From IMG/VR virus record IMGVR_UViG_3300035034_003552: DNA of 64,000 nt; one strand, given 5' to 3'. The stretch is from a virus (taxonomy: Duplodnaviria > Heunggongvirae > Uroviricota > Caudoviricetes). The position numbers and the translations under genes are program-made. Below the pieces are notes generated by a model. The model was not told the origin of the DNA. It saw only the letters and a program-made list of their open reading frames with translations, and ran no database searches. Shown piece by piece: positions 56,238 through 60,746 of the stretch. The stretch's first letter is position 1. Every line of letters begins with the position of its first letter.

Positions 56238-58628
56238 ATGCCAATAAACTATATAACTAAAAGAGATAAAGAGATAGTAGAATTTGACAGAGAAAAAATA
56301 GAGATTGCAGTAAATAATGCAGCCGTAGATGGTAATTTCGAGGAGAATCCCTTAGAACTGGGTATAAAGGTCGCAGATATAGTAGTACGAAAACTGCTTC
56401 CTGCTTATGAGGACAATACCAAAAACGATACTCCAACTGTGGAGCTTGTTCAAGATCTTATTGAGGAAACATTGATGGAACTAGGAAACTTCAAGATTGC
56501 TAAAAAGTATATTATATATAGAAGTAAAAGAGAAAGTGTTAGAATCAAGAAAAATAAAGAAGATGATAAAAACTCTATCCTTTCAAATGAATTCCTGAGC
56601 AAGTATAAACACCAGCCTAACCCTTTCCCAACAGAGCTGGGGGAATTTATTTATTATAGAACCTATTCGCGATGGTTGGAAGTAGAACAGCGCCGCGAGT
56701 ATTGGTGGGAAACAGTTAAAAGAGCTGTAGAATACAACTGCTCACTTGCACCAACAACTGAAGAAGAAGCTGAGGAATTATATGATAATGTATATAACTT
56801 AAGAAACTTTGTTGCCGGTCGTACATTATGGACAGCGAGTACAGAATCATCTAAAAAATACGGAATGAGTAACTACAATTGTTCCTTTACAGTTATAGAT
56901 AGCTTTAAGGCATACCAGGACATTTTCTACTTGCTTATGATAGGCAGCGGAACTGGATTTCGCGTTCTTCCTCGTGATGTTGATCATCTGCCTAAGATCA
57001 GAACTAATGTGGAAATTATTCATAAATATTATGACCCTATTGAGAAGGACGAGAGGCGTGAATATACCGACTTCGACTTTGATGGTAGAGTTGCTACTAT
57101 TAATGTTGGAGACTCAAAAGAGGGCTGGATTCAATCCCTAGAGTATTACTTTAAGTTCTTAACCGAACATTCTTATAGACCAGTAAGTAAAATCATCTTT
57201 AATTATGACTCCGTACGCCCGAAAGGCGAGAAACTTAAGACATTTGGTGGTACAGCTTCTGGCCATGGAAGTCTAAAGCGTATGTTTACTAAGGTTGATA
57301 AACTATTACACAGCAAAAGCGATAGAGATACAGACGATCTGGATAGAGTTAAGCTAAAGCCTATTGACGCAATGGATATTTCAAACATTATTGCTGAAAA
57401 TGTAGTTAGTGGTGGAGTAAGACGCTCCTCTCAAATTTGCCTCTTTTCTGCTGATGATAAAGAGATTGCCCAGGCTAAAAGCAAGTTATATGAGCAGGTA
57501 AATGGAGAATGGGTAATAGATGAAGAAATAGCACACCGTCAAATGAGTAATAACAGTATCTTTTACGAAGAAAAGCCAACCAGAGAACAACTTAAATGGC
57601 ATGTTGAGCAAATGCGTTTTAGCGGAGAACCGGGATTCATTAATGCAGAAGAAGGAAGGCGCCGCAGGGAAGATTTTAAAGGTGTAAATCCCTGTGCTGA
57701 GATTCTGTTAGATTCTAAGGGTGTATGTAACTTAACCTCCCTTAATGTAATGAGCTTTGTAGAAGACGGTGAGCTTGATAGAGAAGCCATGATGAACTCA
57801 CAAAGATTATCTGCTAGAGCCGGTTATAGGATGGCCACAATAGAGTTTGAACTGCCAGAATGGGGTTACATCAATGACAGAGATAGACTAATTGGGCTAT
57901 CAGTTACTGGGTGGCAGGATATGGTGAATGCTGCTGACTTAGATAAAGATGAAGAAGCACAACTATTAAGACAGCTAAAAAATGCTGGCCAGGATGCTGC
58001 AGAAGAAATAGCGGCAGAATTAGATGGTAACGAACCTAAGCTAGTCACTACCGTTAAGCCAGAAGGCACTCAGACACAAATGCCTACGGTATCAAGCGGA
58101 CTCCATTATAACCATAGTGCATATTATTTAAGAAGAGTTAGAATTTCTGCTTCTGATCCGCTGGCCCGGGTGTGTGAAGAATTGGATTATCCAGTACACC
58201 CTGAAACCGGTCAGGATCCTGACAATCCAGAAACACTAGTCATAGAATTCCCAGTACGCGCTCCAGAAGGCAAAGTCAAGGATGACGTTGGAGCCCTAGA
58301 ACAGTTAGAAACCTACAAGATGTTTATGAAAAACTATGTTGATCATAATGCTTCGATCACTGTTCATGTCAAGGATGACGAATGGGAAGATGTAGAAGAA
58401 TGGTTATGGGAAAACTGGGAATATACAGTTGGTATCTCCTTTCTTTCTTATAATGACAGCTTCTATGAACTAATGCCTTATGAGGAAATTACCGAAGAAG
58501 AATACTTAGATAGAGCAGAAAAAATGAAAGAGTTTAAGCCCGGTCTAGTTGCTAAGTATGAAACTGAACAGCTTGAGAGAGAGGTTGAGGGTAGTTCCTG
58601 TGAGACTGGAGCCTGTCCGATCAGATAA
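56238..58628 (+). CDS. nrdJ: Ribonucleotide reductase, class II (adenosylcobalamin-dependent, NrdJ-type), with an N-terminal ATP-cone-like region.
   Basis: SD 'aagggag'. N-terminal 'ITKRDKEIVEFDREKIEIAVNNAAVDG' (ATP-cone-like), 'NPCAEILLDSKGVCNLTSLNV' (class II active-site Cys/Asn motif NPCxEIxL...CNLxSxN), C-terminal 'SSCETGACPI' redox Cys pair; 796 aa. Confidence 0.8.
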   Translation: MPINYITKRDKEIVEFDREKIEIAVNNAAVDGNFEENPLELGIKVADIVVRKLLPAYEDNTKNDTPTVELVQDLIEETLMELGNFKIAKKYIIYRSKRESVRIKKNKEDDKNSILSNEFLSKYKHQPNPFPTELGEFIYYRTYSRWLEVEQRREYWWETVKRAVEYNCSLAPTTEEEAEELYDNVYNLRNFVAGRTLWTASTESSKKYGMSNYNCSFTVIDSFKAYQDIFYLLMIGSGTGFRVLPRDVDHLPKIRTNVEIIHKYYDPIEKDERREYTDFDFDGRVATINVGDSKEGWIQSLEYYFKFLTEHSYRPVSKIIFNYDSVRPKGEKLKTFGGTASGHGSLKRMFTKVDKLLHSKSDRDTDDLDRVKLKPIDAMDISNIIAENVVSGGVRRSSQICLFSADDKEIAQAKSKLYEQVNGEWVIDEEIAHRQMSNNSIFYEEKPTREQLKWHVEQMRFSGEPGFINAEEGRRRREDFKGVNPCAEILLDSKGVCNLTSLNVMSFVEDGELDREAMMNSQRLSARAGYRMATIEFELPEWGYINDRDRLIGLSVTGWQDMVNAADLDKDEEAQLLRQLKNAGQDAAEEIAAELDGNEPKLVTTVKPEGTQTQMPTVSSGLHYNHSAYYLRRVRISASDPLARVCEELDYPVHPETGQDPDNPETLVIEFPVRAPEGKVKDDVGALEQLETYKMFMKNYVDHNASITVHVKDDEWEDVEEWLWENWEYTVGISFLSYNDSFYELMPYEEITEEEYLDRAEKMKEFKPGLVAKYETEQLEREVEGSSCETGACPIR

Positions 58629-58801
58629 TGTTTAAACTAACAGATAATAAAGAGCTCCTTGAAGCACTAAGAAAGGGCTTTAAAAACAAAGGTGGGTATT
58701 GTCCCTGTAAATTAGAAAAGACAGATGATAATATCTGCCCCTGTACTGAGTTTATAGAGACCGGTAAATGTCACTGCGGATTATTTGTAGAAGTTGAATA
58801 A
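58628..58801 (+). CDS. Ferredoxin-thioredoxin-reductase-catalytic-subunit-like miniprotein (57 aa, CPC/CPC/CHC), translationally coupled to nrdJ.
   Basis: ATG overlaps the nrdJ stop (TAATG). 'MFKLTDNKELLEALRKGFKNKGGYCPCKLEKTDDNICPCTEFIETGKCHCGLFVEVE' carries the CPC-x-CPC-x-CHCxLF arrangement characteristic of FTR catalytic chains. Not in the ORF track (<60 aa). Confidence 0.5.
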   Translation: MFKLTDNKELLEALRKGFKNKGGYCPCKLEKTDDNICPCTEFIETGKCHCGLFVEVE

Positions 58802-58807
58802 TAACTT

Positions 58808-58836
58808 AGACCCCTCAAAAGGGGTCTTTTTTTTTG
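58808..58836 (+). terminator. Strong rho-independent terminator ending the plus-strand module.
   Basis: 'agacccctcaaaaggggtct' followed by T9. Confidence 0.8.
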
Positions 58837-58848
58837 CCCATAATAAAA

Positions 58849-58878
58849 GGCCGCCCGAAAATGAAAAATAGGGCGGCC
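58849..58878 (-). terminator. Terminator for the convergent minus-strand gene block.
   Basis: 'ggccgccc...gggcggcc' 8-bp GC stem. On the minus strand it is followed by 'ttttattatggg'. Confidence 0.55.
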
Positions 58879-58906
58879 ACAGTTTTATCTATATTCTGTT
58901 ATTTTT

Positions 58907-59233
58907 CTAATCTAGGTCGATAATTGATTCTACCCCATACTGCTCTAAAAGATTGAATAAATCTGGATAGTCTTCTTTCATCTTATCCTTCTCAATTTCA
59001 GTAATAGATTCTCCACATACAGGACACCTTTCTGTCTCTTCATATTCTTCAGACTTTAAAATATTAAGCAGTTCTAGATAGGCGTCATCCTTGGTTTTTT
59101 CATACTCCAGTAAATCTGTCATACCTTCTTTCTCAGCGTGTTTAAGTACTTTCTTAGAATCAGTAAATAGGTTAAATTCATCAGTTCTTCTAATCTTAAT
59201 GAGATCTACTATAGCTTTCTCTTTGTTAGTCAT
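58907..59233 (-). CDS. Hypothetical acidic protein with a CxxC motif.
   Basis: 108 aa; 'RCPVCGESI'. Confidence 0.55.
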   Translation of the reverse strand: MTNKEKAIVDLIKIRRTDEFNLFTDSKKVLKHAEKEGMTDLLEYEKTKDDAYLELLNILKSEEYEETERCPVCGESITEIEKDKMKEDYPDLFNLLEQYGVESIIDLD

Positions 59234-60353: not shown

Positions 60354-60746
60354 TCACTCTCCATATATTTCTTTTATAGATATCTTTAACATCTGAATAG
60401 CTTCTTTAAATATAGGATCATATTTTTTCTTCTGCTCCTTGTAGTAATCTCTACCAGTAGGTGTTATTCTATAAAACTTCTTACTATTTACCATTTCGTC
60501 TTCTTTATAATAACTTAAGTAACCCTGGTTGGCCAATCTTTTAAGTATCGGGTATACACTACCTGAGGAAGGGCTCCAGTCCGATACTTCTTCAAATTCT
60601 TGCTCCATCCACTCCATCATCTCTGCTCCGTACATTTCTGCCTTACGATTAACCAAATAATGAAGTATAAAGAGTCTAATGAGTCCAGAAGTACTTATCT
60701 TTGCCGGCTGCAACAGAAATCTGTTGTAAGTATTCCTATTAGTCAT
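60354..60746 (-). CDS. PadR-family transcriptional regulator.
   Basis: 'LIRLFILHYLVNRKAEMYGAEMMEWMEQEFEEVSDWSPSSGSVYPILKRLANQGYL' matches the PadR winged-helix consensus (...GYEI...xxxxGxLYPxLxRLExxGxL). Confidence 0.7.
   Translation of the reverse strand: MTNRNTYNRFLLQPAKISTSGLIRLFILHYLVNRKAEMYGAEMMEWMEQEFEEVSDWSPSSGSVYPILKRLANQGYLSYYKEDEMVNSKKFYRITPTGRDYYKEQKKKYDPIFKEAIQMLKISIKEIYGE

Follow-up and report, generated by a model that had tools for sequence, protein, structure and literature searches.

What reduces the ribonucleotide reductase (RNR) of a phage that carries, directly behind the reductase gene, a very small open reading frame (ORF) resembling part of ferredoxin:thioredoxin reductase (FTR)? 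The question is raised by a 64,000-nt stretch of a large tailed phage, IMG/VR record IMGVR_UViG_3300035034_003552 (hereafter the window, to which all position numbers refer), in which a class II RNR gene overlaps a 57-aa ORF that we call mini-FTR. RNRs that form an active-site disulfide need an external reductant, and in aerobes the electrons come from NADPH via thioredoxin or glutaredoxin; for anaerobes and their phages the physiological electron donor of RNR is, to our knowledge, often not known. The mini-FTR gene is real and belongs to the family of the FTR catalytic subunit (FTRc) by sequence and predicted fold; in phages it is linked to RNR genes, in bacteria to those of thioredoxin. The reading that we favour, with a probability of roughly 0.6, is that mini-FTR is a minimal ferredoxin-dependent reductase of the [4Fe–4S]/disulfide kind, by which the phage RNR is returned to its reduced state either directly or via a redoxin, which here would probably be the thioredoxin of the host. 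The compared loci are referred to by L-numbers (L001, phage c-st; L002, crAss001; L007–L037, IMG/VR; L038–L117, Clostridia genomes), and the features of the window on which the argument draws are the following.

56238..58628 (+), class II monomeric-type (RTPR) adenosylcobalamin ribonucleoside-triphosphate reductase, 796 aa, assigned with TIGR02505, Pfam and PHROG 367

56250..56534 (+), N-terminal ATP-cone of RTPR, aa 5–99, Pfam PF03477, E = 8e-18

58599..58616 (+), C-terminal redox tail of RTPR, C788-ETGA-C793 (…SSCETGACPIR), read from the translation

58626..58630 (+), TAATG stop/start overlap, in which the RNR stop codon TAA (58626–58628) and the mini-FTR start codon ATG (58628–58630) share one base

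58628..58801 (+), mini-FTR, a 57-aa minimal FTR-catalytic-domain protein, assigned with Pfam PF02943, PHROG 38239, the AlphaFold2 fold and pN/pS

58700..58777 (+), cysteine signature of mini-FTR, C25PC27-x9-C37PC39-x8-C48HC50 followed by GLF, read directly

58808..58836 (+), intrinsic terminator, an 8-bp GC-rich hairpin (AGACCCCT/AGGGGTCT) with a T9 run

The translation of mini-FTR, MFKLTDNKELLEALRKGFKNKGGYCPCKLEKTDDNICPCTEFIETGKCHCGLFVEVE, matches Pfam PF02943 (FeThRed_B, the FTR catalytic beta chain) above the gathering score (23.6 bits, threshold 22; E = 5e-5, profile positions 39–87 of 106), as well as PHROG 38239, a family of unknown function (E = 1e-10). An earlier note on this DNA had described a class II RNR coupled by TAATG to a 57-aa ORF, and both ORFs and the one-base overlap were found as described; the CPC…CPC…CHCGLF arrangement that it reported is also present, with spacers that are x9 and x8 by direct count and not the stated x11 and x9. 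Its further proposal, that the cysteines align with the catalytic residues of FTR, is borne out by the match of all six cysteines and of the histidine, by the score against PF02943 and by a predicted structure that superposes on FTRc and FDR structures only. Indeed, G23, Y24, C25, P26, C27, C37, C39, F42, G46, C48, H49, C50 and L52 are invariant across 56 aligned homologues, the second cysteine half (CPC-x8-CHC) matches 'CPCVPMRERKECHCMLF' of 2pvd_A residue by residue, and there is a gap-free alignment of NICPCTEFIETGKCHCGLFV with WNCPCVPMRERKECHCMLFL of Synechocystis FTRc. In the Synechocystis enzyme we take the cluster ligands to be C55, C74, C76 and C85 and the disulfide to be C57–C87, with H86 as the histidine; by analogy, C25, C37, C39 and C48 of mini-FTR would be the ligands of a [4Fe–4S] cluster and C27/C50 the redox-active pair, with H49 between.

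The AlphaFold2 model of mini-FTR, calculated with the alignment of 56 homologues, has a pLDDT of 92.9. When compared with the PDB using Foldseek, its top 11 matches were the FDR of Methanosarcina acetivorans (4tpu, ranked first) and ten FTRc chains, with query-normalized TM-scores (TMq) of 0.54–0.75, probabilities of 0.89–1.0, root-mean-square deviations of 2.7–3.7 Å and E-values of 0.009–0.3, none of them reaching E ≤ 0.001; the sole remaining match, outside FTRc and FDR, had E = 6.7. A phmmer search of the PDB returned weak matches only, namely 7pwe ('FTR subunit B'), 4tpu and the FTRc chains 1dj7, 2pvd and 7bzk. By sequence, motif and predicted fold, mini-FTR is the bare catalytic core of FTRc: it shares with the catalytic subunit the six-cysteine CPC/CPC/CHC signature, the x8 spacer between the last two motifs, the conserved histidine and a core on which its predicted fold superposes with a TMq of up to 0.75. 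It differs from FTR in being encoded by a phage, within an RNR operon and in a non-photosynthetic, probably anaerobic setting, with no variable subunit. No candidate for the latter (FTRV) adjoins mini-FTR, which is followed by the terminator, and no scan of the window was aimed at FTRV. The variable subunit, which shields the cluster, has been reported to be confined to oxygenic phototrophs and is therefore not expected alongside mini-FTR; within FTR, the catalytic subunit alone contacts both ferredoxin and thioredoxin (PMC9025218).

Mini-FTR behaves as a genuine gene. The closest relative of the locus sits on a 202,621-bp contig. The relative L003 encodes a mini-FTR that is 87% identical and an RNR that is ~84–90% identical to those of the window, and the relatives that retain the ORF and the overlap show 72–87% protein identity (alignment values 81–84%), the overlap taking the form TAATG in L003 and TGATG in L008 and L009. 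In L007, mini-FTR lies 140 nt downstream of the RNR gene without overlap and has an AGGAG of its own. Against three relatives, pS was 0.70–0.88 and pN 0.09–0.15, giving pN/pS of 0.12–0.22; with pS near saturation but pN low, mini-FTR is under purifying selection. In a six-frame scan of the window for ORFs of at least 45 aa, the CPC and CHC motifs occurred in mini-FTR only, besides two antisense junk frames. A spurious ORF is ruled out by the pN/pS values, by the conservation in relatives and by the Pfam and PHROG matches, and a frameshifted C-terminal extension of the RNR by the 140-nt gap and separate AGGAG of L007 and by gaps of ~160 nt at loci of the NrdJ type. The closest GGAG of the window lies 17 nt 5′ of the mini-FTR start codon, so that reinitiation at the stop/start overlap is the likely mode of translation. 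A role in defence or anti-defence was also considered and discarded, PADLOC giving noise only (E > 0.02).

The association with RNR extends well beyond this locus. An IMG/VR sample comprised 31 loci with a mini-FTR homologue, and at 25 of these an RNR gene lies directly upstream: RTPR at four (L007–L010), NrdJ (TIGR02504) at 15 (L011–L024 and L027) and NrdD at six (L029/30, L033/34, L035 and L036). At each NrdD locus but L036, NrdG was identified too. One further locus, L028, is cut off by the contig edge. Mini-FTR is thus kept next to RNR in relatives, L003 and L007–L009 included, and the earlier note's second ground for refutation, a lack of such conservation, does not apply. A homologue is also present in 41 cultured-phage records (Clostridium, crAss-like and uncultured phages), and none of the genera of these records was found among the organisms listed for the 1153 records that match the RTPR of the window. 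In the C. botulinum phages c-st and D-1873 the gene order is glutaredoxin (CST074), NrdG (CST075), intein-containing NrdD (CST076) and mini-FTR (CST077), the last being annotated as 'weakly similar to Ferredoxin-thioredoxin reductase, catalytic chain'. The crAss001-like phages carry gp5, a 'putative ferredoxin-thioredoxin reductase', in a tRNA array and encode a B12-dependent RNR (gp69) too; neither thioredoxin nor glutaredoxin is annotated in the crAss001 genome annotation. CST077 and gp5 are likewise small FTR-like ORFs, with 41% and 37.5% identity to mini-FTR, respectively, c-st differing in its class III RNR partner and in a CMC-x11 motif. Further phage entries exist in UniProt, one of them under the name 'Ferredoxin thioredoxin reductase [Siphoviridae sp.]'.

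Some members of the viral family depart from this pattern in detail. The copy at L036:6001-6152 loses the motif past the first CPC (frameshift or pseudogene), those of L031 and L032 have CCC…CCC variants of the motif, and that at L035:2764-2976 has CVC…CKC, with the histidine replaced by lysine. The 3′ end of crAss001 gp5 (L002:2271-2468) overlaps an annotated tRNA-Ser. The BFVD entry A0A8S5RYM0 (Myoviridae sp. ctNQV2), 232 aa long and annotated as dihydrofolate reductase, has a domain in which the model of mini-FTR finds a match (TMq 0.82, 35% identity, E = 6e-4); it may be a fusion of dihydrofolate reductase with mini-FTR or a gene-calling artefact.

The three types of RNR that accompany mini-FTR have one need in common. 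The RTPR ORF of the window matches TIGR02505 at the equivalog level (388.3 bits, cut-off 340.05) and has Pfam matches to RNR_Alpha, Ribonuc_red_lgC and RNR-II_ins_dom; the TIGR02505 match begins only at aa 132, which marks the ATP-cone, an allosteric on/off domain, as an add-on to this type of enzyme. A C-x4-C-P-[IV]-R tail is common to the RTPRs of L003, L007 and L009, and the C788/C793 pair of the window enzyme would, by analogy, be the acceptor of external reducing equivalents. In the RTPR of Lactobacillus leichmannii a C-x4-C-P-I-[KR] tail takes electrons from thioredoxin, driven by NADPH via the flavoenzyme thioredoxin reductase. The two enzymes share the TIGR02505 family and the C-terminal cysteine tail, but the Lactobacillus chain depends on NADPH and a flavoenzyme where a ferredoxin-driven Fe–S enzyme is implied here, and the RTPR of the window has the ATP-cone. 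NrdJ ends in a Cys-rich finger (…CPDCGEHLIYEGGCTICKNCGFSKCG). The phage NrdDs are of the T. maritima type, the L033 protein matching 4coi with E = 9e-142 and its ANCCRL aligning with the ASCCRL (SCCR) motif; T. maritima NrdD was inactive with formate and required a >10 kDa protein from extracts, for which E. coli thioredoxin was no substitute (PMC4493059). RTPR, NrdJ and NrdD all form or relay disulfides and all need a protein dithiol. No activase and no radical-generation step is common to class II and class III enzymes, and we infer that disulfide re-reduction is the sole requirement that they share. A common function in NrdG activation is ruled out, as class II RNRs, which have no activase, carry the same mini-FTR.

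Some of these loci also encode a small redoxin. Glutaredoxin- or NrdH-like ORFs with a CxxC motif lie upstream of NrdD in L001 (GCTAC), L029/30 (HCPKC) and L033/34 (HCPRC). At the RTPR locus L009 a glutaredoxin-like ORF has retained a single cysteine (GCKRG), the second having been lost, and no redoxin gene adjoins RTPR in L003 or L007. Several of the RNR genes are themselves interrupted. The inteins of the c-st NrdD (L001:2996-5932) and of the L029 NrdD (L029:2041-4995) are inserted precisely at the 'SCC(R)' motif (…ASCC|FDGQQK and …SNCC|FSGSQK). The RNR of L003 (L003:1216-5502) is interrupted twice, by an HNH/NUMOD4 endonuclease ORF after aa 296, probably an intron, and by a LAGLIDADG intein at aa 486, whereas the allele of the window is free of interruptions.

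Outside viruses, relatives of mini-FTR are widespread, and they keep different company. An exhaustive profile search returned 1249 clusters (50% identity) at E ≤ 1e-3, 368 of them at E ≤ 1e-10, and a word-indexed search returned 6137 clusters (90% identity), chiefly of 65–68 aa. Many close bacterial homologues carry a precomputed PF02943 match and some have been named 'ferredoxin-thioredoxin reductase catalytic domain-containing protein' by NCBI. Neighbourhoods were sampled at the best 80 bacterial loci (L038–L117), all of which are metagenome-assembled genomes of gut or rumen Clostridia (Ruminococcaceae, Acutalibacteraceae, Christensenellaceae and others). An RNR gene within 5 kb was found at none of the 80, and a thioredoxin with the WCGPC motif is the immediate neighbour in 35 (27 at position +1 and eight at position −1). 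These proteins, so far described by database annotation only, share ~40–54% identity, the N-terminal helix and the GGYCPC motif with mini-FTR and probably share its chemistry. They differ in an extra 'QIADPDFEGY' loop, in the motif form CPC-x9-C(I/M/V)C-x15-CHC with its x15 spacer and in having thioredoxin, never RNR, as a neighbour. The pairing suggests that the 66-aa Clostridia mini-FTR and WCGPC thioredoxin constitute a widespread, uncharacterized two-gene ferredoxin–thioredoxin system of gut Oscillospirales and Christensenellales. Two longer family members, P0111 and P0152 (209 and 173 aa in total), have unrelated N-terminal regions, which may reflect true fusions or chimeric gene calling.

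A ferredoxin-dependent supply of electrons to RNR is known from one archaeal system. According to the passages in which the work is cited, FDR and NrdH deliver electrons to the class III RNR of Methanosarcina barkeri (Wei et al., 2015, Biochemistry 54:7019; cited in PMC9176816, ref. 70, and PMC6262447, ref. 32), and the same context describes FDRs as Fe–S enzymes related to FTRc that occur in archaea and bacteria (PMC9176816; PMC6262447). As in the case proposed here, an FTRc-like [4Fe–4S] protein without a variable subunit feeds RNR via a small redoxin in an anaerobe. The layout of the phage NrdD operons (glutaredoxin-like ORF, NrdD, NrdG and mini-FTR) mirrors the M. barkeri chain, and in phages the FTR-like gene is genomically tied to RNR, by the overlap here and by adjacency at the 25 viral loci. 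On the other hand, FDR has ~170 aa with an extra rubredoxin-type domain (4tpu is labelled 'Rubredoxin') and CYC where mini-FTR has CHC, and the target-normalized TM-score of mini-FTR against the 169-aa 4tpu chain is only 0.27; without the rubredoxin-type domain, mini-FTR is not an FDR of the M. acetivorans MA1659 type. The acceptor also differs, being a class III enzyme in M. barkeri and a class II RTPR in this phage, with NrdJ or T. maritima-type NrdD in related phages, and the present case is of viral origin with no NrdH-like gene found in the window. A functional analogue is provided by an FAD-containing NTR-like homodimer (subunits of ~35 kDa) that transfers electrons from ferredoxin to thioredoxin in anaerobes, but its fold and cofactor are unrelated to those of mini-FTR. 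The suggestion of the earlier note that the RNR draws its electrons from the ferredoxin pool gains support from the three thiol-dependent RNR types, from the thioredoxin pairing in bacteria and from the Methanosarcina barkeri precedent. Its description of the reductant pathway as unusual holds in part: a ferredoxin route is supported, but given the FDR–NrdH–NrdD chain it is less unprecedented than was supposed.

The favoured scheme would run as follows. Mini-FTR would be produced together with RTPR, from genes with an overlapping stop and start codon and one terminator for both. Reduced ferredoxin, presumably that of the host, would give single electrons to the putative [4Fe–4S] cluster, the cluster-adjacent C27/C50 disulfide would be cleaved as in FTR, and C27 would then attack the disulfide of a carrier with a thioredoxin fold. 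The carrier would in turn reduce C788/C793 of RTPR, which would relay to the active-site cysteines, and the dithiol consumed by RNR per turnover would be regenerated; as an alternative last step, mini-FTR could reduce the RNR tail directly. With no carrier gene in the window and with bacterial relatives that are paired with thioredoxin, host thioredoxin is the most likely intermediate. An anaerobic Firmicutes host is plausible, and in such a host we infer that binding of a cluster by mini-FTR, ferredoxin as the donor and the RNR tail or its carrier as the acceptor would allow NADPH-independent synthesis of dNTPs, to the benefit of the phage.

Several observations weigh against this scheme. In sequence, mini-FTR resembles solved FTRs only weakly (E = 0.06–1.2 by phmmer), and the sequence-only comparison with the PDB is likewise weak (E = 0.003–1), so that membership of the FTRc family rests on Pfam, motif conservation and predicted fold. 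The earlier note rightly judged the protein to be too small for a complete canonical FtrC: at 57 aa and ~6.4 kDa, it stands against the ~110–117 aa, ~13 kDa and flanking helices of the full-length subunit, lacks ~38 N-terminal and ~19 C-terminal positions of the PF02943 profile and has a first loop of x9, seven residues below the x16 that we take to be canonical for FTR. As only about half of canonical FTRc is present, stable cluster binding and ferredoxin docking by mini-FTR are no more than putative. The 64-kb window yielded no gene for a thioredoxin, a glutaredoxin or a ferredoxin when all ORFs were searched by phmmer with E. coli TrxA, NrdH and Grx1 and the c-st glutaredoxin, ORFs containing CxxC (two with the motif at residue 10) were examined with Pfam, and regular expressions were run for Fer4 and C[GP]xC; the chain must therefore borrow parts from the host or parts encoded elsewhere in the genome. 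Five viral loci (L025/26, L031/32 and L037) have no adjoining RNR, and the RNR of crAss001 is unlinked to gp5, from which it lies ~27 kb off on the circular map. Many of the NrdJ loci, moreover, hardly differ from one another and stem from a single metagenome, leaving only ~6–7 independent lineages. A dUTPase gene is found near mini-FTR in c-st and L012, helicase genes too lie near it at NrdJ-type and c-st loci, and the adjacency to RNR could partly reflect the structure of a nucleotide-metabolism module. Finally, a literature search found no experimental work on the ~55–70-aa subfamily.

Some of these points would suit a more general role, in which mini-FTR is a ferredoxin-dependent thioredoxin reductase. 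As an auxiliary gene it would then maintain the thioredoxin of the host in the reduced state for many targets, with RNR as one beneficiary and the adjacency as a matter of gene modules. The bacterial homologues, which pair with thioredoxin (35 of 80) and not with RNR, the placement of gp5 in a tRNA array far from RNR, the five viral loci without an adjoining RNR, and the dUTPase and helicase genes at NrdJ-type and c-st loci would all fit this picture. We nevertheless regard it as unlikely, because the position directly after RNR or NrdG recurs over three non-orthologous RNR types in the ~6–7 lineages, the stop/start overlap with RNR is conserved and every cultured carrier encodes a thiol-dependent RNR as well; moreover, it departs from the re-reduction of RNR proposed above chiefly in specificity and not in chemistry. 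The very same overlap makes direct reduction of the RNR tail attractive. Mini-FTR would then dock on RNR and reduce the C-terminal cysteine pair without a thioredoxin-fold intermediate, as part of a two-component ferredoxin-dependent RNR, and the translational coupling of the two genes, the lack of a redoxin in the window and beside RTPR in L003 and L007, the L009 glutaredoxin-like ORF with no second cysteine and a flexible C-x4-C tail that could reach an exposed FTR-type disulfide are all compatible with such a route. It is nonetheless quite doubtful: the substrates of all characterized FTR and FDR enzymes have a thioredoxin fold, a canonical thioredoxin sits beside the bacterial relatives, the phage operons of the NrdD type retain a CxxC redoxin, and the window represents 64 kb of a genome of probably ~200 kb. 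In its boldest form, which we consider a long shot, mini-FTR would be the smallest known Fe–S disulfide reductase, made at a fixed ratio and acting directly on C788/C793 of RTPR to give a two-component RNR independent of both thioredoxin and NADPH; by extension, it may be mini-FTR and a glutaredoxin-like carrier that physiologically reduce the class III RNRs of the T. maritima type, for which a reductant has long been missing.

Alternatively, the protein could have abandoned redox chemistry and serve as a Cys-rich metal-binding protein (for example, for Zn), a structural, assembly or regulatory partner of RNR in which an FTR-like cysteine pattern has been retained. Its very small size without the N- and C-terminal helices of FTRc, the altered motifs of some relatives (CKC in L035 and CCC…CCC in L031/32), and the Cys-rich Zn fingers known in the C-termini of some class II RNRs, such an NrdJ C-terminus being seen here, could be taken in this sense. 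We hold this to be very improbable, as neither the six cysteines nor the histidine vary among the 56 sequences, FTRc and FDR are the only structures matched by the predicted fold, and the thioredoxin pairing in bacteria would be hard to explain for a non-redox protein.

FTR-like miniproteins of phages are already known from database annotation, as exemplified by CST077, gp5 and the UniProt entries. Our literature search returned nothing on phage FTR with RNR operons, on FTR-like proteins in Clostridia or on the function of crAss001 gp5, and a 2013 survey of phage RNRs does not mention ferredoxin. That a minimal FTR core is found time and again within the RTPR, NrdJ and NrdD operons of phages appears to be unreported in the searchable literature, as do the contrast with thioredoxin-linked bacterial relatives and the hint that it offers on the reductant of T. 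maritima-type NrdD. The presence of mini-FTR in phage operons of three RNR types, combined with the thioredoxin pairing of its bacterial relatives, points to a ferredoxin-driven route of dNTP synthesis in gut and other anaerobic phage–host systems. Should this be the case, mini-FTR would provide a minimal and tractable model of FTR chemistry, with one cluster and one disulfide in ~6 kDa. It would also be a candidate for the reductant that NrdDh-type enzymes still lack, and would illustrate how phages redirect a flow of low-potential electrons towards the replication of DNA.

As to the surroundings of the locus, the large upstream ORFs of the window match PHROG families of virion structural and tail-fibre proteins. 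The terminator at 58808..58836 closes the transcription unit of RNR and mini-FTR, and the genes downstream are convergent, on the minus strand. Between the convergent units, a second hairpin, GGCCGCCC-N14-GGGCGGCC, lies at 58846–58882 and is probably the terminator of the genes on the minus strand. Of these genes, the first (58907–59233, minus strand) encodes a 108-aa protein with one CxxC and a weak Pfam match, below cut-off, to Mut7-C RNase-like proteins (E = 1.4e-4). Further along, at 60354–60746 on the same strand, lies a gene for a PadR-family transcriptional regulator (Pfam, E = 1.7e-15), whose position is kept in the relatives L003–L006.

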